From Fidelibacterota bacterium (lineage in GTDB: Bacteria; Fidelibacterota; UBA2242), in assembly GCA_049975265.1 (NCBI GenBank), contig JBNGDF010000003.1, positions 1-64,000 of the forward strand: a stretch of 64,000 nt of DNA, in the 5' to 3' direction. The position numbers and the translations under genes are program-made. The notes below the pieces were generated by a model. That model saw only the letters and a list, made by a program, of their open reading frames with translations, was not told the origin of the DNA and made no database searches. Positions 4,033 through 51,433 of the stretch are shown here, piece after piece. Within the stretch, counting starts at the first letter, position 1; the number at the start of each line of letters is the position of its first letter.

Positions 4033-6438
4033 TCAATATATCCGTAATATATCATATCCCCAGCCGGGAATCTCGAGCGTGATCTCATTATCGGTAATTT
4101 TCCAAAAGTCATTTCCCAGCAGGGACTCCAGCCGACTAACGACCAGCCAGTCGGGCAGGGCAAATGTTACCTTCCGTTTATGCGGAGATTTGCTGAATCC
4201 GACGATGAGGCGGTGTTCACTGTCGCCGCGGGTGTAGATCATCACCTCTTTGTCGGTGTAGAGATTCAGATAATCGCCGCGGCGCAGGCAGGTGTATTCG
4301 TTGCGAAGTTTTGTTAATTGTCGAAACGCCCGCAGCTGTTCGGTTTCCCATACGCTTAATTCATCGTCAAAGCGCATCATGCGGCGATTGTCGGGATCAT
4401 TGGCGCCGGTCATGCCGAATTCATCGCCGTAAAATACGATAGGGACACCCGGGAGCGTCATTAAATAACAGAAAAGAAGACGCTCTTTCAGGTAGGTCGC
4501 ATATTCATCAACGGTTATCGGCGGTTCGCGGAACGCCCGCTCGACGCCGTTTTCGGCGAGGGTTAGATCACCTTCCAGCAGCGCCATGATCCGAACCTGG
4601 TCATGACTGCCGATGATGTTGCCCATCAGGTTATTGTAGCCGTAGACGCTGAGCGATTTTTCGATACCGGCTTTCAGTTCCTTTAAATCGCTTTGGGGGT
4701 CGGTCATCAGGCGGCGGAGTATGAAGTACTGGTTCATGTTGAACTGAGCCTCCAGCATGCCGTTATTGACATAGGATTTGATCAGGTCATCGCCGCCGAA
4801 GGTCTCGCCGATCTGATAGACGCCGAGTGTCCGCTGCGGGTTGATCCGGCTCTTCATTTTGCGGGTCAGTTCGCGCCAGAAAATATAGGGTACATGCTTG
4901 GTGGCGTCATGCCGGAAGCCGTCGATGCCGGTCTTTTCAAGCCACCAGACGGCGTTGTCGGTCATCGTGGATAAAGCCGCGGATGAATTTTCGTAGTCAA
5001 AAGAGGGTAGGAAGGTATCAAACCAGGTGGTCAGGCGGTATTCATCCCAGCGGCGGATATTGTAGCTGCCGTCGGGCAATACGTAGCTGCCAAACCAGTC
5101 CCGGTTTTCCTGAAAATAGACATGCTCGATATGCACATGATTGGAAACGAAATCCAGCAGGATTTTCAGTCCGTGCTGATGAGCAGATTCGACGAGTTTC
5201 CGTAGCTCCGCCGGCGAACCGAAGCGCGGTTCCGTTTCCTTCGGGCTGACCGTCCAGTAGCCGTGATAGCCGGTGTAGTAACGATGCGGCTCGGGATATT
5301 CCCGCCAGGCATTGTCGGTGGTTTGATTCACCGGTGAAATCCAGAGGGTGTTGACACCGATGTCGTTGAAATAGCCGTTTTCGATTTTTTCCGTTAATCC
5401 GGCGAAATCGCCACCCTGAAAATTCGCCCGCCAATCCAATTCCGGATGATTTACCGGTCGGTCATTTTCAATGTTGCCGTTGGCGAAGCGGTCAATCATC
5501 AGGGAGTAAATTGTCGCATCCTGCCATTTGAAATCGGCACCGTTGCCAGCCGGGCTGCCGTCGTTCAGCCAGACAGTGATGACGTTGCCGGGCAGATGGT
5601 TATTGGTTGCCACAATCCGGAAAACGCCCTTTTTCTGATCGGCTTTCAGAGCGGACAGGTCAGCGCAGACCGTCCTTTCCTGCAATTTGATATAATTTTC
5701 AGGATAGGGCTGATTGTTTATTAAGGCAATGTAATCGAGCGACCCGGCTGCGCCTTTTGAGTCCACGGCAAAAAGGAGCATTTTCGGATCGTTACTCTGC
5801 AAAAAGTAGAGTCCCGGGATAGAATCAGCGGCATCCGATTGCACCTGTAGCAGGGAGTTGAAATAGCCGAAGCCGTTGTCCACTTTGACCGGATTTTCCG
5901 GATCGTATATTTCCCGGTTGCCGATAACGAACTGGTATTCGTAGATGCCGTCGTCCAGGAGAACCGACCGGGTAAAGATGCCGTCGTTGTCGTCATCGGA
6001 CATCGGCGTTGCGGTACGGCTCCAGTTATTGAAATTGCCCATAACAAAAACAGCAACGTCTGTTTCAGGGACGGCGCAGCGAAAGGTGACCTCGGTTTTG
6101 GTTTTGACAATTATGGGCAGAACCAGTGGAACCCTGCCGTTCTTCAACCGGATCAGACTCACGCCGGAAAAGCCCTGTTCCGGCATTAATTTGATTACAT
6201 TCTCCTGAGCATTATATTCGCAGGACACTTCGCGGTTCGGTTCGATTTTCAGGTCATATAGTTCGGCGTAAAAAATGTCGCTGACGGGAATGGTCGTCAT
6301 TTCACCGGGATTGATGGAGATAAATTCAATCAGATCGGTGGTACCGTATGGATTTTGCTGATTGGAACATGTAGACAGACATCCGATCAGCAGAGTAAAA
6401 ATCAGCACCGGGATGGTGTGATGTTGTTGGTGTGTCAT
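4033..6438 (-). CDS. GH13 alpha-amylase family glycosidase with CBM48/E-set domain, probably exported
   Basis: GGDFAG, YHGYW, DFVSNH, GFRHDATKH (nucleophile Asp), GE, SHD, YGDEFG, DPDNRR; N-terminal signal-like segment; GGGGAG SD before ATG 6438. Confidence 0.9.
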   Translation of the reverse strand: MTHQQHHTIPVLIFTLLIGCLSTCSNQQNPYGTTDLIEFISINPGEMTTIPVSDIFYAELYDLKIEPNREVSCEYNAQENVIKLMPEQGFSGVSLIRLKNGRVPLVLPIIVKTKTEVTFRCAVPETDVAVFVMGNFNNWSRTATPMSDDDNDGIFTRSVLLDDGIYEYQFVIGNREIYDPENPVKVDNGFGYFNSLLQVQSDAADSIPGLYFLQSNDPKMLLFAVDSKGAAGSLDYIALINNQPYPENYIKLQERTVCADLSALKADQKKGVFRIVATNNHLPGNVITVWLNDGSPAGNGADFKWQDATIYSLMIDRFANGNIENDRPVNHPELDWRANFQGGDFAGLTEKIENGYFNDIGVNTLWISPVNQTTDNAWREYPEPHRYYTGYHGYWTVSPKETEPRFGSPAELRKLVESAHQHGLKILLDFVSNHVHIEHVYFQENRDWFGSYVLPDGSYNIRRWDEYRLTTWFDTFLPSFDYENSSAALSTMTDNAVWWLEKTGIDGFRHDATKHVPYIFWRELTRKMKSRINPQRTLGVYQIGETFGGDDLIKSYVNNGMLEAQFNMNQYFILRRLMTDPQSDLKELKAGIEKSLSVYGYNNLMGNIIGSHDQVRIMALLEGDLTLAENGVERAFREPPITVDEYATYLKERLLFCYLMTLPGVPIVFYGDEFGMTGANDPDNRRMMRFDDELSVWETEQLRAFRQLTKLRNEYTCLRRGDYLNLYTDKEVMIYTRGDSEHRLIVGFSKSPHKRKVTFALPDWLVVSRLESLLGNDFWKITDNEITLEIPGWGYDILRIY

Positions 6439-6451
6439 AAACAATCTCCCC

Positions 6452-8980
6452 TTATAATTCGTACAGAACCATTGCCGAAATGGGCTTCAGCTCCAGGTCG
6501 GTCCGGGTTACCGGTTCGATAATGTCCACCCCGGCACTGGAGTGATCAACCACCAACGTCCATTTACCTTTTGGAATGGTAAAGGTCCCGGGATGGTGGT
6601 TTGGATTGACCAGCACCAGTATCCGGCTCCAGCGGTCTTTTGTATTTCCGCGGCTGATCTGATACTCCAGACCATTTTTCGGAAGGGTGTATTTTTTATT
6701 ATCCAGAAACTGAACATTCCTGCGAATTTCTGCGGCGCTGGTCATGCGCAGCATGGGGTGGTCTTTGCGTAGTTGAATCAACCCTTTGTAATAATTGAAT
6801 ATATCAAGATTTTCCTGTTTGTAATCCCAGCGGATTTTATTGATTTTATCGGGTTGATTGTAGCTGTTGTGCGAGCCGAATTTTGTGCGCAATATTTCCT
6901 GTCCGCCGTGAATAAACGGGACACCTTGCGATGTCAACAGCAGCACGGCGGCGAGCTTATCCATGGCTTTCAATTCGGTGTCGGTTAACGAACTGTCGCC
7001 TTCGGTGGAAGCGACCAGTTGATCCCAGAGTGTCCGCCCGTCGTGGCAGGCGACGTAGTTGAGCACCTCCAGAGGTGAATCAGCAAAATCATCAATGCTG
7101 CCCAGGATGCCCTTTTTTATACTTTCGGGGTTTTTCCCGGTTTGAATATAGCCGGGCTCGGTGTTGTACCAGGGACCTTTGAGGGCATCGCGATAATGGT
7201 CGTTGAAGACGGCAAATCCTCTGCCGCGCTGAATCCCTTTGACTGTGGGAGTGATTGGTGTTTCGCCGGCGGTCCAGGGTTCGCCGTAAATGAAAATATC
7301 GGGACGAATCGCGCGCAGTTCCTGAACGATGGTTTCCATGGTTTTTAGATCAATCAGTCCCATTAAATCGAATCGGTATCCGTCAATTTTGTACTCCTGG
7401 ACCCAATATTTCAGGGATTCGATGATGAAGCGTCTCACCATCGGCAGCTCAGAGCGCACCTCGTTGCCACAGCCGGACCCGTTCCAGTAACTGCCGTCCG
7501 GTTTTTCCCGGTAGTAGAAATGAGGAACAATACCGTTGAAGTTATAGCGAATTTCGGGATTGCCCTCGGCAGTATGGTTGTAGACGACGTCGAGAACGAC
7601 CTTGAGTCCCTTTTTGTGACAGGCATCCACCAGCTGTTTTAATTCGCGAATCCGGCTGGCATCATCCTGGCGGGTGGCATACCAGCCGTCGGGTGAATTG
7701 AAGTTGACCGTCATATAGCCCCAGAAATAGTTATTCACCGCATCGTCGTGTTCAAAATCCTGAACCGGCAGCAGCTGAATGGTATTGACACCCAACTCCG
7801 CCAGATGATCCAGTCCGGTACTCAGGTCGGAGCCCGGCAGGCGGGTACCTTCTTCGGTGAATCCGAGATATTTGCCCTTATGGTGGATGCCGGAATTTTC
7901 GGCAATGCTGAAATCCCGCACATGAATTTCATAGATAACGGCTTCGCTGAAGGGAAATGAGGGTGGTTCGGCGATCGGGGTGTCGTCATGATACACCAGC
8001 GCCCGACCGTCATGACTGGTCACGCAGCGGGCATAGGGATCAACGTACTCGAGCGCCGGCTTGTAGGCGGGGTCTGGTCCATTGACGGAATAGGTGTAGT
8101 ATATTCCGATAAGGTCTTCATTGATCGCGATCGACCAAAGCCCGTCCTCTTTTCGTTTCAGAGAAATTTTTCTGGCGTTGTCACCTTCGGCTTTGCGGTA
8201 GAGATTCAAAGTGACAGCCATTGCGCCCGGCGCAAAGAGTGAAAAGACGGACTTTTCCGGGGAGTAGCTCAGTCCCAGCGGAGCATCGGTGTGATAGTCT
8301 GTCAGAATATCCCGCAGGAAGAGATTGCCCGATTGATAGCCGTTTGCGCTGACTTTACCGGGCAGATCGGCGGGAGACAATTGTTCTTTTAATATGAGCT
8401 GAACCAGCCCGGAAGAATCGGCGGTTTCGGGAATAAGATGAATTGATTTAAATTGTAGAATCGTTTTTTCCCTACATTCCAGCTTCGGTTCCAGTGTCGC
8501 CAGGGCTGTTTTTTGAATGGGATGGGAAAAAACCACGGTAATCAGGTTCGCACCGTCCAGAAAGGCTCTGCGGATGATTGGATTTGTGTCCGGTTTCTTT
8601 ACGTAGACCGTTGCATCGCCGGGCAGGATCCAGACCTCTTTGGGCATGGAACGACTCCAGCTGCGGTTGGGATCGTCACGACTTTCCCAGTTTTGATACT
8701 TTGGCAGGAGGCTGATATTTCCGTGCGGGGGATATTGCCCGATATCAATGACGAAGATGAGTCCGAAGGAATCGCTGCCAGCAGGCGGGACCTCGATATT
8801 TTTTTGATCGACCCAGGTCCAGAGGGTCCAATCGTCATATTGATTGTCATAGCGGTGGTAGTGGACTTTTAGTGTGTTCATCGTGTGATTTCCGGTTTGG
8901 TTGCAATTATTGAGGAGCCAAAGCAGGCAAAACAGATATACAAATCGCCGCACCTGAGAATTTATTAGAGGATCCGGCAT
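6452..8980 (-). CDS. pulA: Type I pullulanase (GH13) with N-terminal carbohydrate-binding module
   Basis: HYHRYD.QYDDW.LW (CBM41-like), YEIHVRDFS, YFWGY, DVVYNHT, NGSGCGNE, GYRFDLMG, YGEPW, CHD, NSYN. Confidence 0.92.
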   Translation of the reverse strand: MPDPLINSQVRRFVYLFCLLWLLNNCNQTGNHTMNTLKVHYHRYDNQYDDWTLWTWVDQKNIEVPPAGSDSFGLIFVIDIGQYPPHGNISLLPKYQNWESRDDPNRSWSRSMPKEVWILPGDATVYVKKPDTNPIIRRAFLDGANLITVVFSHPIQKTALATLEPKLECREKTILQFKSIHLIPETADSSGLVQLILKEQLSPADLPGKVSANGYQSGNLFLRDILTDYHTDAPLGLSYSPEKSVFSLFAPGAMAVTLNLYRKAEGDNARKISLKRKEDGLWSIAINEDLIGIYYTYSVNGPDPAYKPALEYVDPYARCVTSHDGRALVYHDDTPIAEPPSFPFSEAVIYEIHVRDFSIAENSGIHHKGKYLGFTEEGTRLPGSDLSTGLDHLAELGVNTIQLLPVQDFEHDDAVNNYFWGYMTVNFNSPDGWYATRQDDASRIRELKQLVDACHKKGLKVVLDVVYNHTAEGNPEIRYNFNGIVPHFYYREKPDGSYWNGSGCGNEVRSELPMVRRFIIESLKYWVQEYKIDGYRFDLMGLIDLKTMETIVQELRAIRPDIFIYGEPWTAGETPITPTVKGIQRGRGFAVFNDHYRDALKGPWYNTEPGYIQTGKNPESIKKGILGSIDDFADSPLEVLNYVACHDGRTLWDQLVASTEGDSSLTDTELKAMDKLAAVLLLTSQGVPFIHGGQEILRTKFGSHNSYNQPDKINKIRWDYKQENLDIFNYYKGLIQLRKDHPMLRMTSAAEIRRNVQFLDNKKYTLPKNGLEYQISRGNTKDRWSRILVLVNPNHHPGTFTIPKGKWTLVVDHSSAGVDIIEPVTRTDLELKPISAMVLYEL

Positions 8981-9184: not shown

Positions 9185-10030
9185 ATGAAGAGACATTCCG
9201 GCTATAAAGTAGTATTTGCGACGCTGTTGCTTTTTTATTCAGTTGCCCTAATGGCAGTCGGGCCCGATCCGCTTCCTCTTAATATTAAAAAGGAGGTGGT
9301 TTCCGTCGGTCCGCTAGGGATGAAGGCGATTCTCGTTGAGGGTGGCGCCTTTGAGATGGGCGATAAATTTAATGTCGGTGGCAGCGATGAACAGCCGGTG
9401 CACGATGTGGCAATCTCGGATTTTTATATGAGCGTGACGGAAGTGACGGTGGAGCAGTACAAGGCTTTCTGTCTGGCAACTGATCGAGCGATGCCGCAGC
9501 AGGAGTCATACAGTAAAGATGACTTTCCGATAGTTTTCGTAACCTGGTTTGAGGCGCAGGATTTTTGTGAATGGGTGGGCGGCAGTCTACCGCTGGAGGC
9601 ACAATGGGAGTATGCCGCCACTTCACGAGGACTAACCTTTAAATATCCGTCGGGAAATGAGATTGATCACAGCCTGGCAAATTTTAGCGGAACCGGTAAA
9701 AAAGACCGCTGGAAAAAGCTGGCACCGGTGGCGAAATTTCCACCCAATGCAATTGGTCTTTACGATATGGCGGGCAATGCCTACGAGTGGTGCTACGATT
9801 ATTACAAAAGAGATTATTATAGTTTGCCCGGCTATCAGGATCCGCCGGGACCGGCAACAAGCATGTTCAAGGTGCTGCGCGGCGGCTCCTGGTATCATGA
9901 TAAAGAGGAGATGCGCTGCGCCAATCGTTTTCGATACATGCCGGTTGCCCGGATGAGTTTTGTCGGGTTTAGAGTTGTGTGGGACCCCCGGACCGCTCCC
10001 CTGAAACCCGATCATTCCAGTCACAGATAA
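9185..10030 (+). CDS. Formylglycine-generating-enzyme (FGE-sulfatase/SUMF1) fold protein, exported
   Basis: Signal peptide; F.MG, P.H.V, EVT..QY, LP.EAQWEYAA, N..GLYDMAGN.YEW, RGGSW, GFR; the catalytic CxxxxC pair of true FGE is absent. Confidence 0.88.
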   Translation: MKRHSGYKVVFATLLLFYSVALMAVGPDPLPLNIKKEVVSVGPLGMKAILVEGGAFEMGDKFNVGGSDEQPVHDVAISDFYMSVTEVTVEQYKAFCLATDRAMPQQESYSKDDFPIVFVTWFEAQDFCEWVGGSLPLEAQWEYAATSRGLTFKYPSGNEIDHSLANFSGTGKKDRWKKLAPVAKFPPNAIGLYDMAGNAYEWCYDYYKRDYYSLPGYQDPPGPATSMFKVLRGGSWYHDKEEMRCANRFRYMPVARMSFVGFRVVWDPRTAPLKPDHSSHR

Positions 10031-10043
10031 TTCGTACAATTGC

Positions 10044-12254
10044 ATGCCTGTCAATGGGAAATCGCAGAAGGTTAACTGCCTGGTTTTTGCCGTTGGTTTT
10101 ACGGCTATCGCCGGGCAGTTGGCATTTATCCGTCTGATTACGCAGTCCTTCAGCGGGAATGAGTTGTCCATGTCGATCGCCATTGGGCATTGGATGCTCT
10201 GGACAGGGATTGGCAGTTTGCTGGGAGCCCGGTTTATCCGCCGTGATTTTCTGGTCAGACACCTGTTCGGATTGATTGTCTTTTATACATTTCTTTTAAT
10301 CGTTACCTCCAATCTGCTGCTGGTGCTCCGTCGGGTGATCGGCGTTGATTTGAGTGAAGTTCTGGGCTTGGGGCGCATATTTATGTGGAGCGGGATAATG
10401 CTGCTACCATCGGCGCTGGTCAATGGACTGTTTTTTCCCACCTGTATCCGCTGGGTTGACGACCTGCAGATCAGCTATCCGATTCATAAAGTCTACATTT
10501 TTGAAACCCTCGGTTCGGCGGTGGGGGGGATTGTTCTGATCTTATTGGTATCATTGGGAATGCAGACCAGCCATGTCATTCATCTGTCGGCTTTTTCATT
10601 TGTAGTTATCGGCGGGTGGATATTGCTGAGAACAGGAAAATTTCGCCTGCTGACAAGCATTGCTGCGGTGCTGTTCATCGGGCTTTTTTCCGGTGTCGTT
10701 ATCCCGGCGATGGAACGCGTAAAATGGCGTCCCTATCGGATCGAGGCGATCAGAGAATCGCCGCATCAGGTTCTGACTGCATTATCCTATGCGGGTGATC
10801 GGTTGCTGTTTTCCAACAGCGAACCACTCTGGAGTTTCGGAATCGAAGAGAATGCCGAAGAACTGGTGCATTTTGCTCTGCTGAATCACCCTGAACCGAA
10901 GCATGTTTTGGTGATCGGGGCACTTTTTCAGGATATAATCGGGCAGTTGTTAAAATATCCCGCCATGGAATCGATCCATGCCGTACAGAATGATAAAATC
11001 CTGAATGAATTTGTCCGGCATCCAGGTTCCGAACAGCCGATGGATAGAGTGAAGGTTCATAGAGTCGTTGATGACCCGGTGCGGTTTATGCAGAGTAGCC
11101 GGAAGCATTTTGATGTGGTCATTCTGAATATTCCGTTACCGGTGAATGTTGCCTGGAATGTCTACTACTCCCGGGAGTTTCTGACGCTTCTGAAAGACTA
11201 TTTGAATGCGGAAGCAGTTGTTTCGATGTGCTTTCCGGGCAGCGAAACCTATCTGAACAATTATCAGGTTCAATTTTTCAAAGTGATGGAAAACACCGTG
11301 CGGTCGGTATTTAGATACTCCGAATGGGTACCCGGCGCTACGATTCATTTGCTGGCTTCCGATCATAGACTTGACAACCGACTTGAAACGATCATCTCCG
11401 AATTACAGCGACGGGAAATCGAAAACCGCTACATTCAGAAGAATTATTTATGGGATCGTCTGTCTCCATTGAAAATTGATTTTCTGCTGAGCCGTTTATC
11501 CCGGTCTGACACCGAAAGAGTCAACTCCATCAAAAAACCGGTGGCATTTTATTACAGTACAGTCGTATGGGACCAGCGGACGGGCGGGTTGTTGAAGAAA
11601 ATCTATCCCTGGTTTGACAGACAACCGGCATTCCTGTTCACGATTGTATTCGTCGGAATATGTTTCATTGTGTTCCTTATTTTGGATCGTCGGAAACAGG
11701 CTGGTGCGACTGGTAAGATGATAATGGCGCTGGTGGGATTTTCTGTCATGAGCTTGGAATCGGTTGTACTGATTGCGATGCAGAGCTATGCCGGCGCACT
11801 TTATGTACGCATCGCTCTTCTGAGTATGGCGTTTATGCTGGGTGCCGCGGCGGGTGCCTCCTGGCAACGTCGCGGTCAGCATGTTCACGGTCGGCACCCG
11901 CTGTGGATCGCCTGCGCCGTTTTGTTATTGACGAACATTGTATATGGATTGCTGTTGTTGCACGATTCTCTCGTACTGGATTTTCCGTGGTTCCACTATC
12001 TGACATTGCTGATTTGTGGCGGTATGAGCGGGATGATATTTCCGATTCTGAGCCTGCGTATCAAGAGCCTGTCGGCAACCTCCGCCGCCGGTGCAGCGGG
12101 CTCCGTATATGCCTGGGATATTATCGGTTCCTGTCTCGGTATCTATGTGACATCGGGACTCATTATCCCGGTTTACGGATTAATGACGGTGACAGCTCAG
12201 GTTGCAGCGATTTTGGTACTGCTGCTGATCGCTTTATTTCGTTTCGGCAGATAA
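10044..12254 (+). CDS. Membrane-fused spermidine synthase-like protein (TM - SAM-binding-fold domain - TM)
   Basis: GNELS...WTGIGS, Y.FETLGSAVGG, ESP.Q, EELVH..LL.HP.PK.VLVIG, FDVVIL..P.P, YY.SREF, Y..D..GS..G. Confidence 0.8.
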   Translation: MPVNGKSQKVNCLVFAVGFTAIAGQLAFIRLITQSFSGNELSMSIAIGHWMLWTGIGSLLGARFIRRDFLVRHLFGLIVFYTFLLIVTSNLLLVLRRVIGVDLSEVLGLGRIFMWSGIMLLPSALVNGLFFPTCIRWVDDLQISYPIHKVYIFETLGSAVGGIVLILLVSLGMQTSHVIHLSAFSFVVIGGWILLRTGKFRLLTSIAAVLFIGLFSGVVIPAMERVKWRPYRIEAIRESPHQVLTALSYAGDRLLFSNSEPLWSFGIEENAEELVHFALLNHPEPKHVLVIGALFQDIIGQLLKYPAMESIHAVQNDKILNEFVRHPGSEQPMDRVKVHRVVDDPVRFMQSSRKHFDVVILNIPLPVNVAWNVYYSREFLTLLKDYLNAEAVVSMCFPGSETYLNNYQVQFFKVMENTVRSVFRYSEWVPGATIHLLASDHRLDNRLETIISELQRREIENRYIQKNYLWDRLSPLKIDFLLSRLSRSDTERVNSIKKPVAFYYSTVVWDQRTGGLLKKIYPWFDRQPAFLFTIVFVGICFIVFLILDRRKQAGATGKMIMALVGFSVMSLESVVLIAMQSYAGALYVRIALLSMAFMLGAAAGASWQRRGQHVHGRHPLWIACAVLLLTNIVYGLLLLHDSLVLDFPWFHYLTLLICGGMSGMIFPILSLRIKSLSATSAAGAAGSVYAWDIIGSCLGIYVTSGLIIPVYGLMTVTAQVAAILVLLLIALFRFGR

Positions 12255-12384: not shown

Positions 12385-13932
12385 CTAATTGTCGTTCAGC
12401 GTTGCGCGATTGAACACCTGCGCCGAAAAGATGCTGATTTCGGTGTTTTTGTCTTTCCATGCGTCGGGAGGTAATCCGGCTTTCCGGCAGGTATGTTGCA
12501 GAAAGGTTTCGCGGTCCCAGCCGTAATCCGTTGCCACCTGCGGCAACAGCAGGCCCTGGTAATAACCCTGCTTGATAATGATGCCGTGTTTGCCGACCTC
12601 AATGATGGAGGGGTCGTCAATTATTTCCGGTACGGTCAAAACAGAAACTTCCACTTCCAAATGCTCCAGTTCGGCGGGTGTCACCGGATTGAAGCGCGGG
12701 TCCCGCAGAGCCGCTGACTGAGCCACTTCGATGACGGTTTCGTAGAGGGGATAAACCGGCAGAATATAGCCGATACAGCCGCGCAGCTGACCATGTTTTT
12801 CAATGGTTACAAAGGCGCCCCGCTTCTCTTTGCAGATAGGGGGTATGTCTTGCGGTTTCGGCAGTGGTTTGCCCCTGACACAGGCGTGGATGACATCCTC
12901 CGCCAGTTGGAGGAGGAATTTTTGTTCCCCGATATTCAGCTCGCGGTTGCCGGGGTTTTTCGATTTCATGCTGTTATCCTTTTTTAATGTGGTCTTCTCT
13001 TTGTAAAACGCCGCCGCCATATAGCCGACGACCCGTGATTTGTCACCGAAGGGCACGTCGCCGCTATTGGCATAATGCAGCAGTTGAACATTGGTGGCAT
13101 TATTCATTTGGGCGGCGATCATGGTAGCGATGATGGGACCGCCGCCGCAGGCTTCGAGGGTTTTCGTCATTAAACCGCGGTAGAGTCGATCGATTGTAAA
13201 ACTCTCGACGGTCTCCATGAACCGGCGATCGATTTTTTTACAGGTTTCGTAATCGTGATAGTGAGACAGGTCACTGGAGGCGATGATCAGCAGGTCATAC
13301 GTCGCAGCCATTTTACCCAGTTGGCGTCCCAGTGTTTCGATGATATTCCATTCCATAGTACCGAGTACGATCGGAACGATGGGAACCTCACCAAGAACCA
13401 TCTGGAGGAAAGGCAACTGAACTTCGAGGCTGTGTTCTGCACGACCGCTCAACCCGATGCCGTGACCTTTTGCCGATATCTGAACAGCGTTGCCTGACGC
13501 CAGTTTTTGGGCAATAGTTTTTTCAACGCTCAGTTTACCCAGTGGGGTCAGGTAAGCATCGCCGTCGTATATGGAAGCGAAATCGAAATAGTCGATATGG
13601 CAGGGTGAGATCACTATCACAGCGTCATACGAGTATCCCTTTACGGCAGCATAACTGTATGCCGCCACCGGTCCGCTGTAGGGGTATCCTGCATGCGGCA
13701 CAATCACAGTAAAAGGTTTCCGGGGTGGGATTTCACCCTGAACCGCCGCCAGATAGTTTTCGATAGCCTGGCGGATTTCTGTTTCACTTTTCGGATAAAA
13801 CAGACCGGCATTATAGGCGGGTCGCTCTTTGGCATTGCCGGTTTGATTGCATCCAAGCAGCATAGCACACACTCCCATGGTAATAATGGTTTTAAAGGTG
13901 AGTATTCCTCTTATTCTTCCAAATCCTCTCAT
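12385..13932 (-). CDS. amrB: AmmeMemoRadiSam protein B (MEMO1-like) fused to protein A (AMMECR1-like), with lipoprotein signal
   Basis: PHAGY.YSG, EHSLEVQLPFL, SSDLSHY, CGGGP (MEMO) followed by LRGCIG, DPRF, GLLLPQVA, KAGL (AMMECR1). Start moved to ATG 13932, which overlaps the amrS stop as ATGA; lipobox LLGC. Confidence 0.9.
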   Translation of the reverse strand: MRGFGRIRGILTFKTIITMGVCAMLLGCNQTGNAKERPAYNAGLFYPKSETEIRQAIENYLAAVQGEIPPRKPFTVIVPHAGYPYSGPVAAYSYAAVKGYSYDAVIVISPCHIDYFDFASIYDGDAYLTPLGKLSVEKTIAQKLASGNAVQISAKGHGIGLSGRAEHSLEVQLPFLQMVLGEVPIVPIVLGTMEWNIIETLGRQLGKMAATYDLLIIASSDLSHYHDYETCKKIDRRFMETVESFTIDRLYRGLMTKTLEACGGGPIIATMIAAQMNNATNVQLLHYANSGDVPFGDKSRVVGYMAAAFYKEKTTLKKDNSMKSKNPGNRELNIGEQKFLLQLAEDVIHACVRGKPLPKPQDIPPICKEKRGAFVTIEKHGQLRGCIGYILPVYPLYETVIEVAQSAALRDPRFNPVTPAELEHLEVEVSVLTVPEIIDDPSIIEVGKHGIIIKQGYYQGLLLPQVATDYGWDRETFLQHTCRKAGLPPDAWKDKNTEISIFSAQVFNRATLNDN

Positions 13933-15047
13933 GACCAGATGCCGGGAATCGGTATGTTGCAGTGCGGACACCTACCGTTTTTGATACTGTTTTTTAAAAT
14001 GGTATACCCTTTGCGTACGATCAGGTCGGTGCCGCAATCCGGACAGACCGTATTTTCATGAATATGTCCCGGCACATTGCCGACGTACACATAGTGAATG
14101 CCCGCATCTTTGGCGATCTGGTATGCCATATCGAGGGTTTTGACCGGTGTGGGCGGAAGATTTTGCAAAAGATAATGGGGGTGAAAACGGGTAAAATGGA
14201 GGGGAACGTCGGCACCCAGATTAGCGATGATCCACTTACACATCTTTTCAATTTCCGAACGGCTGTCATTCAGTGTCGGAATGACCAGGTTGACCATCTC
14301 CAGCCAGACACCCTGTGACTTAATTGTCACCATGGTGTCCAGCACAGGTTTCATTGAACCGGAAACCATGTCGCGGTAGAAATTCTCGGAGAAGGCTTTG
14401 AAGTCTACTTTAATTGCATCCAGCACGCCACACAGGTCGCGGAGGGGTATCTGATTAATAAAGCCGTTGGAGATGTTGACATTGCGAATACCACGTTTCC
14501 GACTGATCATCGCCGTATCGAGGACATATTCGGTAAAGACGGTGGGCTCATTATAGGTATAGGCAATCGTCGGGATGGAATAGCATTCCGCCGTTTTGAC
14601 CAGCTCCTCTGGTGCAACATATCGGAAGCTCAAATCCTCGGGATTCGATTGTGCCAGATTCCAGTTTTGACAAAATTTGCACTTTACATTACAGCCGCTG
14701 GTAGAGACCGACAGCGCTGTAGTGCCGGGCAGGAAATGGAACAGCGGTTTCTTTTCGATCGGATCATTGTTCATGGCGGTCAGGCGTCCGTAAACCAGGG
14801 TTTTGTACTGACCGTCCTGATTTTCCCGAACGCGGCAGTAGCCCCGCTGTCCGGGGACCACAATACACCGTCGCGGACAGAGCTCGCAACGAACCCGTTG
14901 ATTGTCCAGAGCTTCCCAGTAGCGGGCGTCACGAATGTAGAGGTATTGATCATTCCCATTCCGGGCGGAAGCGGCGAACAGTCGGGCGGAGGCGACACCC
15001 GCCAGACCTTTCATGGATAGTTCAACGAATTCGCGCCTGGAAAGCAT
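13929..15047 (-). CDS. amrS: AmmeMemoRadiSam radical SAM enzyme with twin-arginine signal peptide
   Basis: SRREFV Tat motif; CELCPRRC, DPIEKKPLFHF.PG, CxxxCxxC (CNVKCKFC), YNEP, FHP.Y, C-terminal CxxC...CxxC. Confidence 0.92.
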   Translation of the reverse strand: MLSRREFVELSMKGLAGVASARLFAASARNGNDQYLYIRDARYWEALDNQRVRCELCPRRCIVVPGQRGYCRVRENQDGQYKTLVYGRLTAMNNDPIEKKPLFHFLPGTTALSVSTSGCNVKCKFCQNWNLAQSNPEDLSFRYVAPEELVKTAECYSIPTIAYTYNEPTVFTEYVLDTAMISRKRGIRNVNISNGFINQIPLRDLCGVLDAIKVDFKAFSENFYRDMVSGSMKPVLDTMVTIKSQGVWLEMVNLVIPTLNDSRSEIEKMCKWIIANLGADVPLHFTRFHPHYLLQNLPPTPVKTLDMAYQIAKDAGIHYVYVGNVPGHIHENTVCPDCGTDLIVRKGYTILKNSIKNGRCPHCNIPIPGIWS

Positions 15048-15056
15048 GATGACCGG

Positions 15057-15524
15057 TTAAATTGTCGTTGCGATCAACTGAGCGACGTTGATCAGGTAGT
15101 TGTTTTTATCCAGCAGATTCTGCACCGCCGAGACCTTGACGAAATAGCTACCCTTATAGAAACAGATCAATCCGGGACTCTCGCTACCGGCGTCGCCGAC
15201 ATTGACCTGACTGAAGGATTGATAGCGCTTGTACAGGGCGCTGGCATCTTCCTGTCCACGGGTTTTGAATATCTCGACTTTCATCTTCGTCTGGTTGGGA
15301 CCTTCAATTTCCTGTACCAAAATCATTTTCAGTCCATAGCCGCTGTACAGATGGTAATTTTCTTTCAGATAATTGGCGTAATCCTTGCCGGTACTCAATA
15401 ATTGGTAATCCGTCATTCTCCAGCCGAGGTAATCATTTTTTTTGATCAACAGGCGGCGGGTGGATGCGCAGGATGCAACGAGCAGGCAGCTTAACACAAT
15501 CAGGGAAACGGTTCTTGCTTTCAT
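15057..15524 (-). CDS. Hypothetical lipoprotein (DUF6599-like)
   Basis: MKARTVSLIVLSCLLVASC lipobox; VEIF...A..LY and F.KG.YFVKV patterns; start 2 nt after the upstream stop. Confidence 0.55.
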   Translation of the reverse strand: MKARTVSLIVLSCLLVASCASTRRLLIKKNDYLGWRMTDYQLLSTGKDYANYLKENYHLYSGYGLKMILVQEIEGPNQTKMKVEIFKTRGQEDASALYKRYQSFSQVNVGDAGSESPGLICFYKGSYFVKVSAVQNLLDKNNYLINVAQLIATTI

Positions 15525-15526
15525 GT

Positions 15527-17059
15527 CTAAAATCTCTCTTCTCCTTCTCGGGTTACAACGATTCCAGCCTCTCCTTCCAGAGGGCATTTGTTTTCACAGA
15601 TACCGCAACCGATACACAGATCGCTGTCCACCCAGGGGTAGGCGACCAGACGAATTGAGCCGGTCCCGGGATCCGCATATTCCTTTTCTGTCAGTTTAAT
15701 AGCCTTATCGGGCAACGGGCAATGCTCTTCACAGACGATGCAGTTTTCATTCAGGCGGTAGGGAATACAGCGATCCGTCAGAAAAAATGCCGTGCCGACC
15801 TTGATGTTTTGCTTTTCTTCCAGTTCCAGAGGTCGAATGGCTTTGGTGGGGCAGATCTGTCCGCAAAGATTGCAGTTGTATTCGCAATATCCAAGCCGGT
15901 ATTGAGAAACCGGTGTCAGCAAGCCTGCCAGTCCGGTTTCCAGAAACGCCATCTGCAAACAGGCGCCGGAGGTGGCACAAATCCGCACGCACTCTCCACA
16001 GCGGACGCAGCGCTCTATAAAATCGTCTTCAGGCAGCGCCCCCGGTGGTCGCAGGCGGCGATCAGTTCTGCGGGGATTCAATCCGTTCAGGGAGAGAAGC
16101 CCTGTCCCAAGCAGCGCTGCAACACCGGCACCGATAAACGAGCGCCGTGAAAAGTCCGGGGCACTCTGCATTGCCAGCGGCGATTGGAAGCCGTAGCGAA
16201 TGGCATCGGCGGGACAATCTGCCTGGCAGTCCAGACAGAGGATACATTCCGATTTTTCAGTGTGAATATAATCCTCCTCAATGGCGTCCATTTTGCATTT
16301 TTTCTGACACACCGAGCAGGCGGTACAGCTTTTTTCGGCGACAATGCGCTGAAGCGGGCTGAATTTTGCCAGCAATCCCAATAAAGCGCCAAGAGGACAA
16401 AGGTTGCGGCACCAGAAGCGGCGGGAGATTTTTCCCAACGCCAGGATGGTGATGAAAATTAAAAAGGGCAGAAACAGGTTGGTAAACGTGGGTGAACCGA
16501 GCGGGAAAAACCGGATGGAGATGCTATCCTGGAGATTGAGAATGGTATCGGTGAATAGATCCAGATCGTACAAGCCGTTCAGAATGCCGTTGGACACCAG
16601 GTAGAAAAAGGATATGCCGAATATGCCCAGCGAGCGCCAGAGAATAGGCAGCGGGTCCAGATACCAGGCGATCTGCCAGCCCAGAACGGCAAAGAGGAGA
16701 ATCAGAATCAGCAAGAAGCTTTTGACAGATCGGTATTTACGGGTCGCAATATTCCTCTTTTTGGCGATGAATCGGTCAGAAAGATCGATGGTCGTGCCCA
16801 GCGGGCAAATCCAGCCGCAGAATGCCCGACTAAAAACGAGCGGTGACAGCAGGACAATCAGGGCAATCAGAAAAAGCGGGTCGAAAAATCGTCCGGCGAT
16901 CTGGGTTGCCAGGGCTGTCAACGGGTCTGCCCACAGGAAAAGCTCTGGCGGAATCCAGGGCTGGAAGGGGTAGCCGGCTTGCAGGACGGTCAGGATAAAA
17001 AGCCCGAGAAAGACCAGCTGAACTGTACGTCGCAGGGTAGTTTTACGGATCGTTTTCAT
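15527..17059 (-). CDS. Membrane polyferredoxin (NapH/MauN-like membrane domain fused to NapG/MauM-like 4Fe-4S domain)
   Basis: FCGWICPLG, WCRNLCPLG, several CxxCxxCxxxCP motifs, internal SRRSFI motif, LRPPGAL.E..F...C.RCG.C. Confidence 0.88.
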   Translation of the reverse strand: MKTIRKTTLRRTVQLVFLGLFILTVLQAGYPFQPWIPPELFLWADPLTALATQIAGRFFDPLFLIALIVLLSPLVFSRAFCGWICPLGTTIDLSDRFIAKKRNIATRKYRSVKSFLLILILLFAVLGWQIAWYLDPLPILWRSLGIFGISFFYLVSNGILNGLYDLDLFTDTILNLQDSISIRFFPLGSPTFTNLFLPFLIFITILALGKISRRFWCRNLCPLGALLGLLAKFSPLQRIVAEKSCTACSVCQKKCKMDAIEEDYIHTEKSECILCLDCQADCPADAIRYGFQSPLAMQSAPDFSRRSFIGAGVAALLGTGLLSLNGLNPRRTDRRLRPPGALPEDDFIERCVRCGECVRICATSGACLQMAFLETGLAGLLTPVSQYRLGYCEYNCNLCGQICPTKAIRPLELEEKQNIKVGTAFFLTDRCIPYRLNENCIVCEEHCPLPDKAIKLTEKEYADPGTGSIRLVAYPWVDSDLCIGCGICENKCPLEGEAGIVVTREGEERF

Positions 17060-17952
17060 GTCGTAAAATTATATTTTTGAGCCGGGAATTTGCGGGTGTC
17101 GATTCTACCCATTCCGGCGGCGTGTGCCAGCTTCAGATACTCCAGCGATTCCGGTTCGGAGCCAAATATTCGGGCGCTCCAGGCATCCACCAGAACCCGG
17201 TCGGTCCCGGCAATCAGGGTGTTTAATTCATCTACGTCATTCAGATTTCCACCGGAGGGACCGTTGCGGCGCAGTACCCGGATGGCATCAACTATCGTGA
17301 GGTGCGGGACGATGACACGGTTGATGTCCACGATATTCTCGGCGAACGGGCGGTGAATCCGTCCGCGGTTGCCGCCCAGCAGTCCCATCATGTTTTTGAA
17401 ACCAATGGTCAAGCCGGACAGGGAGTGATGCTTGAGAATCGGCAGATTGATGATTTTATCCACCTTAAAAACCTCGGTGTGGATCAGCCAGCGATCCAGT
17501 TGCGTGGCACCGGGAATTTCTGTATCGACGAAATGGCTGTCCCGGACAAAGCGGACATCGGCGCCGGCTTTTTCGGCATATTCGGGAATCTGGGTGCTTT
17601 TGTAACAGCGCCGGGCGTCGTTGCAGGTATTGTCGACGATTAACACCTTCCTGGCACCGGCGTTCAAACAGAGTCGGACTATGGCAGCGACCAGCACCGG
17701 ATTTGACGTGGCGCCGTATTCCGGTCGGCGGTCCCAGCTGATGTTCGGTTTCAGCAACACATAGTCATCTTTGGAAATGAATGTCGAGATACCGCCCAGC
17801 ATTTCAAATACCTTTGCCGCCATCGCTTCGGGAGAACCGTTTTGAACAATGACGATGATGGGCGAAGTCTGCTCAGCCGGAATCGGTTTGTGACCGATCA
17901 TTCCCGCACCGGCGATCAGGGCAGTTGATTTTAAGAATGTACGTCGATCCAT
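17056..17952 (-). CDS. DUF362 Fe-S protein with Tat signal
   Basis: MDRRTFLK Tat motif; VLLKPN, T.P, INLP.LK.H, KNMMG, D.V.VD. Confidence 0.85.
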   Translation of the reverse strand: MDRRTFLKSTALIAGAGMIGHKPIPAEQTSPIIVIVQNGSPEAMAAKVFEMLGGISTFISKDDYVLLKPNISWDRRPEYGATSNPVLVAAIVRLCLNAGARKVLIVDNTCNDARRCYKSTQIPEYAEKAGADVRFVRDSHFVDTEIPGATQLDRWLIHTEVFKVDKIINLPILKHHSLSGLTIGFKNMMGLLGGNRGRIHRPFAENIVDINRVIVPHLTIVDAIRVLRRNGPSGGNLNDVDELNTLIAGTDRVLVDAWSARIFGSEPESLEYLKLAHAAGMGRIDTRKFPAQKYNFTT

Positions 17953-50431: not shown

Positions 50432-51433
50432 GTGAAAGAGGCGTTGTGGTGGAAAACAGTTGATCAGCAGATTCAGTGCGGACTATGTCCACACCGGTGC
50501 AGGATTGCGAATAATCATTACGGGCTCTGCAATGTCCGCCAGAACCGAAACGGGTATTTATTCAGTGCTGTTTATGGAAAACCGGTTGCAGTCCATATGG
50601 ATCCCATTGAAAAAAAGCCTTTATATCATTTTTTCCCGGGTAGGGAGATCCTTTCCATCGGCACGATCGGGTGCAATCTGTTTTGTAAATTTTGTCAAAA
50701 TTGGGACATTGCCCGGGCGAAGCCGGGGAATGTGATGAGCCGCATGATCAGCCCGCAGGCGATTATTGACGCCGCTGTTGGTAATAATTCAATCGGAATT
50801 GCCTTTACGTATAACGAACCGACTGTTTTTGGTGAGTATGTTCTCGATATTGCCCGCTTGGCTCACGAGTCCGGCTTAAAAACGGTCATGGTGACCAACG
50901 GCTATATTACGCGGGAAGCCATCCTCGATATTTATCCCCATATCGATGCCGCCAACGTTGATCTGAAATCGTTCTCTGTCGATTTTTACCGGCGCTACTG
51001 TGGAGGGGAGCTACAGGGAGTGCTGGATGCTATTCTGGCGATAAAAGAGCAGGGCACGTTCCTGGAACTGACGACTCTGATTATTCCCGGTGTAAATGAC
51101 ACTGAATCTGAAAACGAGACGCTGGTCCGTTGGATTTTGGACAATCTGGGCACCGATACACCGCTGCACTTTTCGGCTTTTCACCCCAGTTATAAAATGA
51201 CTCATCTGCCGCGAACACCCAAAGCCACCCTCGACCGGATCCGGAAAAACGCTCTCGATAGCGGACTCCACTATGTTTACGAAGGTAATGTGATGACCGT
51301 CGATGAAGGCGATACATACTGCCGCTCCTGCGGGCGCCTTTTAATCCGGCGGCAGGGTTATCATATAGAGTATCAGAACCTCCGGGGGAATGTCTGTGTC
51401 TGCGGCACCCGGAACGAGATCATTGTGTCCTAA
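50432..51433 (+). CDS. amrS: AmmeMemoRadiSam radical SAM enzyme, second copy, no signal peptide
   Basis: CGLCPHRC, DPIEKKPLYHF.PG, CNLFCKFC, YNEP, AFHP.Y; GTG start with GAGGAG SD. Confidence 0.92.
   Translation: MKEALWWKTVDQQIQCGLCPHRCRIANNHYGLCNVRQNRNGYLFSAVYGKPVAVHMDPIEKKPLYHFFPGREILSIGTIGCNLFCKFCQNWDIARAKPGNVMSRMISPQAIIDAAVGNNSIGIAFTYNEPTVFGEYVLDIARLAHESGLKTVMVTNGYITREAILDIYPHIDAANVDLKSFSVDFYRRYCGGELQGVLDAILAIKEQGTFLELTTLIIPGVNDTESENETLVRWILDNLGTDTPLHFSAFHPSYKMTHLPRTPKATLDRIRKNALDSGLHYVYEGNVMTVDEGDTYCRSCGRLLIRRQGYHIEYQNLRGNVCVCGTRNEIIVS

Follow-up and report, generated by a model that had tools for sequence, protein, structure and literature searches.

We describe a gene cluster in a 64,000-nucleotide stretch of a Fidelibacterota genome (contig JBNGDF010000003.1, positions 1 to 64,000; hereafter the window), which encodes a second, probably exported copy of the AmmeMemoRadiSam system. 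In the reading that we prefer, to which we assign a probability of roughly 0.5, the radical S-adenosylmethionine (SAM) enzyme AmrS and a lipoprotein fusing the Memo (AmrB) and AMMECR1 (AmrA) domains would act on an envelope substrate that is likely not RNA, supplied by a membrane polyferredoxin and by a transporter-like protein for which we use the working name SpeM. The known system is represented by the models TIGR04335, TIGR04336 and TIGR04337, all of which score above their cut-offs here, and by the structures of human MEMO1 (3bcz, 7kq8) and the archaeal AMMECR1 protein PH0010 (1vaj). The window copy resembles it in its intact catalytic motifs and adjacent genes, and no reaction has been established for either. 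It differs in having leaders on all parts, a fused AmrB-AmrA and an AmrS from a separate branch, and in its partners SpeM, DUF362 protein and polyferredoxin, none of which was found beside 45 signal-less AmrS loci (12 of them with flanks of at least 3 kb). In window coordinates, with Tat standing for twin-arginine translocation and MFS for major facilitator superfamily, the features are as follows.

17056..17952, minus strand: DUF362 protein of the polyferredoxin-linked subfamily, Tat signal MDRRTFLK, LarA-like fold (PF04015, E 2e-51)
15527..17059, minus strand: NapH-NapG fusion polyferredoxin, 510 amino acids (aa), NapH-like then NapG-like, 8 Cys motifs
16133..16150, minus strand: internal twin-arginine motif SRRSFI of the polyferredoxin, aa 304-309 (both arginines, R305 and R306, identical in all 12 aligned rows)
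15057..15524, minus strand: DUF6599-family lipoprotein, VASC lipobox with Cys19 (DUF6599 weak in Pfam; Atlas score 0.91)
13929..15047, minus strand: AmrS radical SAM enzyme with Tat signal MLSRREFV (TIGR04337, 397 bits against a cut-off of 220)
14964..15047, minus strand: Tat-type leader of AmrS, about aa 1-28 (from motif, hydrophobicity and conservation)
12385..13932, minus strand: AmrB(Memo)-AmrA(AMMECR1) fusion, lipobox LLGC with Cys28 (TIGR04336, 248 against 26; TIGR04335, 192 against 99)
10044..12254, plus strand: SpeM, convergent sixth member, MFS-fold transporter with a spermidine-synthase-fold domain at aa 221-528 (from a structure model and from its recurrence beside exported AmrS)

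The earlier note on this DNA had described five co-oriented, overlapping or abutting genes on the minus strand at 12385-17952, and strand, span, junctions and family matches bore this out; the junctions, taken 5' to 3' along the operon, are an ATGA overlap, a 2-nt gap, a 9-nt gap and a second ATGA overlap. The sixth member, SpeM, lies beyond this span and had been missed. AmrS carries its CxxxCxxC motif at residues 119-126, with C119, C123 and C126 invariant, and two further cysteine groups at 54/57/61/71 and 335/338/360/363. The Memo site of AmrB is intact, H80, H112, D221, H224 and C262 being invariant in 20 rows, as are the AMMECR1 motifs of AmrA (LRGCIG at 383, DPRF at 411). Two longer readings were set aside: the lipoprotein start at 15587 (longest open reading frame, ORF) in favour of 15524, and the AmrB-AmrA start at 13971 in favour of the likelier 13932.

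Export signals were called by motif, hydrophobicity and conservation. AmrS and the DUF362 protein show the pattern of Tat substrates, namely a conserved N-terminal RR-x-F-L followed by a hydrophobic stretch, with TatC encoded in G000, as the source genome is labelled, which also encodes Lgt. PF10518 matches the DUF362 leader at 17 bits, below its cut-off of 22.7. By the motif test, 116 of the 120 closest homologues of AmrS have a twin-arginine leader, in a search whose query included the leader; three of the remaining four look like late start calls and one has a hydrophobic leader free of the twin arginine (RR). This bias was addressed by repeating the search with the AmrS core alone against representatives at 50% identity (150 ranks). 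Ranks 1-30 held 13 Tat, 12 Sec or transmembrane, 4 unextended and 1 unclear N-terminus, and ranks 76-150 held 11 Tat, 51 unextended, 6 unclear and 7 not covered. The RR of AmrS is retained in 8/8 close orthologues despite differing codons, which is more than would be expected by chance. A true start downstream of the RR, raised by the earlier note as a threat to the export argument, is excluded in four loci (L002-L004 and L007), since in these no other in-frame start follows the RR before the first Cys cluster is reached.

The leaders also follow the phylogeny. Trees of the leader-free core grouped the Tat AmrS, in one case in 112 rows (105 Tat, 4 truncated, 3 without a callable signal). Another separated exported from signal-less AmrS at a Shimodaira-Hasegawa-like approximate likelihood-ratio support (SH-aLRT) of 82, and a FastTree run on the core placed 23/24 signal-less rows on a branch of 95. 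AmrB has a hydrophobic leader in 86/88 cases next to exported AmrS and in 0/11 beside signal-less AmrS, duplicate loci and SpeM-only loci having been removed beforehand. Many AmrB-AmrA relatives have a plain Sec leader, and the lipobox is therefore lineage-specific. The statement that every soluble component carries an export signal holds, and the signals are conserved.

Three natural controls bear on export. The first is a genus, g37, in which TatC was found in 0/5 genomes (70-94% complete). In three of the five (G034, G062, G122) the gene immediately next to SpeM encodes an AmrS whose Sec leader lacks an RR (L157-L159), and a lipobox AmrB-AmrA comes next in the two such loci long enough to show it; the other two genomes have signal-less AmrS only and no SpeM match. 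One tree suggested a single origin of this Sec-type AmrS within the Tat group; the approximately unbiased test put the alternative slightly ahead, not rejected (p 0.58), and FastTree runs placed the Sec type apart from the Tat group. At L157-L159 an iron-sulfur radical SAM enzyme with a Sec leader stands in genomes where TatC was not found, implying cluster assembly outside the cytoplasm.

The second control is provided by single-chain fusions. We scanned 22 of the 150 AmrS representatives, all metagenome-derived proteins without gene context, and each of the first four architectures below recurs. AmrS, Memo and AMMECR1 share one chain behind a single Sec or transmembrane leader in P0143 and P0145. 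In P0134 and P0136 the chain runs from one leader helix into a flavin mononucleotide (FMN)-binding FMN_bind domain, which bears a flavinylation motif, and from there to AmrS without a further helix. A NapH-like Fer4_5 part is added to AmrS in P0124, P0132 and P0135, and a DsbD_2 part in P0125 and P0140; P0124 and P0132, of ambiguous helix parity, were excluded from the topology argument. Fusion partners of AmrS also include a beta-propeller (P0130) and a CBM_11-like domain (P0133), possible hints of a target on the surface or on glycans.

The third control lies in the same genome. G000 has two further AmrS, at window positions 50432-51433 (plus strand) and at C4:72835-73872, both signal-less, and a signal-less AmrB at C6:63591-64475 that is linked to neither; all three have stops or no leader upstream. 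No signal-less AMMECR1 was seen in G000, and the inner set thus seems to lack AmrA. The conservation of the leaders, the Sec leader where TatC was not found, the single-chain fusions and the signal-less paralogues together lend good support to the proposal of the earlier note that this radical SAM chemistry takes place outside the cytoplasm. To judge from these sequences, we are highly confident that the system is exported, AmrS through Tat and AmrB-AmrA through Sec.

An exported radical SAM enzyme raises a problem of SAM supply. The earlier note had named this problem and overlooked the adjacent gene that may solve it. The structure model of SpeM (predicted local distance difference test, pLDDT, 89.5) has 14 helices, with the spermidine-synthase-fold domain placed between helices 7 and 8. 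The membrane part adopts the two six-helix bundles of the MFS fold (SotB 6kki, Z 30.4, root-mean-square deviation 3.5 over 351 aligned; VMAT2, Z 30.0), and the inserted domain matches spermidine synthase 1uir at Z 27.9. Counts of lysine plus arginine put this domain on the side opposite the N-terminus in 40/40 rows (means 18.8 versus 5.2; positive-inside rule), and the SAM-fold domain is accordingly predicted to face outward. The membrane acids E40, E154 and D692 are invariant, as expected for a cation carrier. SpeM shares its MFS fold and spermidine-synthase-fold domain with the fused MFS/spermidine synthases (NF037959) and 1uir, but forms a distinct subfamily (620-780 bits, versus 121 or less) that is tied to exported AmrS and has lost both aspartates of aminopropyl transfer. 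The first, in the GGGD motif, is present in 0/38 rows, and the second position is Asn in 30/40 rows and Asp in 3/40. With the aspartates that bind decarboxylated SAM lost, SpeM does not qualify as an aminopropyltransferase; it may supply SAM outside.

The strongest competing explanation makes SpeM itself an enzyme, a membrane methyl- or aminocarboxypropyl-transferase or a flippase-transferase. It would share the envelope substrate with AmrS, which for its part would take SAM along through Tat or recycle it catalytically. In spermidine synthase, loss of the GGGD aspartate, the very residue that SpeM lacks, yields a SAM-dependent methyltransferase (PMC3725402), and related MFS/spermidine-synthase fusions without AmrS exist as low-score matches. 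The Asn at the second catalytic position does not favour a transferase, however, and an outward-facing transferase would itself require delivered SAM. Moreover, a Sec-exported AmrS could not bring SAM along in folded form, yet it keeps SpeM. We therefore consider this alternative unlikely.

SpeM recurs beside exported AmrS across phyla, lying on the opposite strand and downstream in 43/65 loci. Of the 63 exported loci whose flanks reach 3 kb or more in both directions, AmrB/A was present in 52, SpeM in 39, any DUF362 in 34 and the polyferredoxin in 11. In the window's phylum SpeM occurs in 38/151 genomes, 33 of them in the window's order. Outside the order, where 71 genomes have AmrS, SpeM occurs in five, each time next to an AmrS whose N-terminus is cut or bears a Tat or Sec leader. 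In Acidobacteriota (121 genomes; the phylum of G151), 42 genomes fell into the exported class, defined as AmrS scoring at least 455 bits against the Tat alignment, a threshold chosen post hoc; all 18 AmrS inspected had an RR leader, and that of G151 is decayed. SpeM was found in 39/42 of these genomes, in 4/46 with only lower-scoring AmrS (next to AmrS in two of the four, with a partial AmrS in a third) and in 0/33 without AmrS; the 46 include one negative row from an unpublished genome (G178), on which no claim rests. The polyferredoxin was found in 35/42 and in five others. SpeM thus tracks exported AmrS better than the polyferredoxin does, in genomes (39 versus 35 of 42) and at loci (39 versus 11 of 63), in counts drawn from incomplete assemblies and from kin that are not independent.

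The membrane part of the polyferredoxin contains CxxxCP motifs and two clusters and is followed by a Tat-type helix and a NapG-like domain predicted to lie outside; hydropathy gave five segments ahead of the RR, two of them weak. By architecture, without direct alignment to Q1NSB0, it resembles the dual Sec/Tat NapH-NapG polyferredoxin whose Tat dependence was shown with reporters (Tooke 2017, PMC5449189), with a NapH-like membrane part, an RR ahead of the last helix and a NapG-like outer domain. The accessible part of that paper identifies no partner enzyme and does not mention DUF362; here its coupled partners are DUF362, DUF6599 and a radical SAM enzyme, the DUF6599 lipoprotein accompanying the DUF362 and polyferredoxin genes. 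The earlier note had proposed that AmrS owns this membrane electron-supply chain. The need for membrane electrons is supported by the FMN, NapH and DsbD fusions and by heme-like inserts, but the block is not dedicated to AmrS. It occurs without exported AmrS, and at exported loci DUF362 of any subfamily was present in 34/63 and the polyferredoxin in 11/63, namely in 9/19 Marinimicrobia loci versus 2/44 others.

Twelve exported AmrS, in 132 loci, contain an extra CxxCH motif with a further His. In the AmrS subclade of L015, L072 and L181-L190 this insert precedes the N-terminal Cys cluster and looks like a heme c site in a protein exported by Tat. Of the genomes with CxxCH-AmrS, 5/10 lack the polyferredoxin, versus 2/32 others (Fisher p 0.005, post hoc and uncorrected for kinship); three of five tested had no DUF362, and five of five tested had cytochrome c assembly genes. 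Taken with the fusions, this complementarity suggests that an outer source of electrons is required by exported AmrS, and that DUF362-polyferredoxin-DUF6599 is one of several interchangeable forms of it. According to the accessible part of Meheust 2021 (PMC8238504), signal-bearing FMN-binding domains are extracytosolic electron carriers that alternate with cytochromes, and cytosolic ones also exist. The systems described there likewise feed an outer enzyme by interchangeable flavin, cytochrome and NapH-like inputs, and differ in that a radical SAM terminal enzyme, as seen here, is not reported in that part.

It is also conceivable that DUF362-polyferredoxin-DUF6599 forms a separate periplasmic oxidoreductase module, co-regulated with but not feeding AmrS, while the AmrS/AmrB-AmrA/SpeM core is as we describe. 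The DUF362-polyferredoxin block, often with DUF6599, stands either with a Tat aldo/keto reductase or alone where exported AmrS is lacking (L201-L204); among the 44 non-Marinimicrobia loci it appears in two, a second DUF362 subfamily lying beside AmrS there. We consider this quite unlikely given the translational coupling in the operon, the presence in 35/42 genomes, the NapH-like Pfam domain fused to AmrS in P0124, P0132 and P0135, the clustering of both DUF362 subfamilies with a polyferredoxin in L207, and the complementarity with the CxxCH insert. Two observations touch on these genes. The aldo/keto reductase with DUF6599, DUF362 and polyferredoxin (L201, L202, L208, L215) is apparently an exported redox module itself, its Tat leader being visible in L201, L208 and L215, and a leaderless DUF362 directly upstream of Tat-AmrS in L125, L127, L196 and L198 is a possible hitch-hiking export partner.

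The DUF362 protein could instead be the client, AmrS and AmrB-AmrA installing or activating a cofactor in this LarA-like protein, which would then work as a periplasmic redox enzyme with the polyferredoxin. Its model (pLDDT 93) matches LarA-family structures (Foldseek E 8e-7, TM-score 0.44-0.55), a search of PDB sequences giving nothing meaningful. LarC (PF01969) was not found in G000 (95% complete), G010 (99%) or G034 (94%) and was found in G019 and G167, in a search confined to LarC among the Lar genes; a nickel-pincer cofactor for DUF362 is thus unsupported. In favour of the client reading, DUF362 adjoins exported AmrS in over half of the 63 loci, the LarA-like fold is seen without LarC in G000, G010 and G034, and AmrS weakly matches activase families and resembles glycyl-radical activating enzymes. 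We nonetheless hold this reading to be very unlikely, since exported AmrS occurs in genomes without a DUF362 match (G034, G210, G174, G243); DUF362 is also seen at 0/45 signal-less AmrS loci, most of which have short flanks.

What the system acts on can be narrowed. RNA base modification has been predicted for AMMECR1 (Balaji and Aravind 2007, PMC2034487, also the source of the RGChG and DxRa motifs). In the window's family, TIGR04335 matches 27/30 genomes, exactly once in each, and this single AMMECR1 domain lies on the long fused gene in all 27 bar one contig-edge fragment. With its sole AMMECR1 domain on a fused, exported gene, AMMECR1 chemistry in this family appears, from sequence, to be extracytoplasmic only, which strengthens the case that the earlier note made against a cytoplasmic RNA substrate. 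A chemistry that stays in the cytoplasm, for instance on RNA, with leaders that are mere relics or serve as membrane anchors, agrees with the general view of radical SAM enzymes, with that prediction and with export being predicted here from sequence, but is exceedingly improbable in the face of canonical RR-x-F-L leaders in many phyla, the swap to Sec where TatC was not found, direct fusion to flavinylated domains and distinct signal-less paralogues in the same genomes. Because inner and outer sets coexist in one cell, the target that we favour is a damaged protein side chain or small metabolite common to both compartments, which the system would repair or remove. MsrPQ, the envelope counterpart of MsrAB, offers a functional analogy, in that a cytoplasmic activity has a second copy in the envelope. 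The 819 other ORFs of the 132 exported loci showed no link to protein-isoaspartate methyltransferase or to other recurring substrate genes.

The mechanism that we propose for the exported system has four steps. Very probably, AmrS would fold and take up its iron-sulfur cluster inside and cross by Tat, and AmrB-AmrA would cross by Sec and become lipid-anchored. SpeM, with about even odds, would export SAM, probably against protons or the products methionine/5'-deoxyadenosine, its outward domain holding or gating SAM. Slightly better than even is the proposal that electrons would cross in the NapH-NapG polyferredoxin and be handed to AmrS by DUF362; in other lineages the input would be a heme-c-like insert or else a flavinylated or DsbD-like domain. 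Tentatively, a 5'-deoxyadenosyl radical would then start the reaction of the cytoplasmic trio, which the Memo metal site and the cysteine of AMMECR1 would complete. A wider version, in which a complete outside radical-SAM machine with a dedicated MFS exporter of SAM, interchangeable inputs and a Memo/AMMECR1 substrate other than RNA extends over many anaerobic phyla, falls a little short of even odds.

Several observations weigh against the exported system as we read it. Our account of localisation and activity is built on sequence and models. For most radical SAM clusters quinol does not reduce strongly enough, and a low-potential cytoplasmic donor must be assumed. A further difficulty is that a Sec-exported iron-sulfur enzyme would need its cluster assembled outside. 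SpeM of the window lineage has worn SAM motifs (IGALFQD for GGGxxG, and Q at the ribose-binding acid), a poor fit with tight SAM binding. The polyferredoxin block occurs without exported AmrS or SpeM in G007, G134, G056, G112 and others, and was not found in g37; G210, G174 and G243 have no DUF362 match although exported AmrS is present. One genome, G152, has a Tat-AmrS and no SpeM-class match, and SpeM was also not found in G197, G243 and G151. In L009 (G151), L126 and L130 an AmrS of the Tat clade has a decayed or uncallable leader. No recurring substrate gene emerged among the 819 ORFs, and the co-occurrence may stem partly from kinship and anaerobic lifestyle. G151, besides lacking SpeM, keeps three DUF362 genes with a polyferredoxin (L207).

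Around the cluster, a signal-bearing FGE-sulfatase-like protein is encoded at 9185-10030 (plus strand), directly upstream of SpeM, and this pair is kept in several family members, even where SpeM sits away from the operon (L161). Two large leader-bearing genes at 4033-8980 (minus strand) have, by eye, the look of alpha-amylase/pullulanase-type glycoside hydrolases, and in relatives synteny joins them to that side of the locus on which SpeM lies. A scan for promoters and terminators was near chance (16 versus 11.0 +/- 3.6 and 14 versus 10.2 +/- 3.1).

The literature searches returned no description of an exported AmmeMemoRadiSam form, Burroughs 2019 (JBC), the main Memo-AMMECR1 paper, and its supplements lying outside their scope and possibly mentioning secreted forms. 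Nor did they return a radical SAM enzyme working outside the cytoplasm or a bacterial exporter that provides such an enzyme with SAM. The HXS defence system likewise links radical SAM enzymes to a periplasmic product, but, in the accessible part of its description (PMC13128918), HxsB/C have no signal peptides and are presumed cytoplasmic, whereas here the enzyme itself bears the leader. The window holds an apparently undescribed, widespread exported variant of a known but unexplained system. If the enzyme does work outside, then the rule that radical SAM chemistry is confined to the cytoplasm would fall, and SAM export would have a direct candidate in SpeM. For MEMO1 and AMMECR1, both linked to human disease, no reaction is known, and RNA modification is the standing prediction. 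A family whose only AMMECR1 domain is exported points away from that prediction and offers a soluble, testable set of enzymes.

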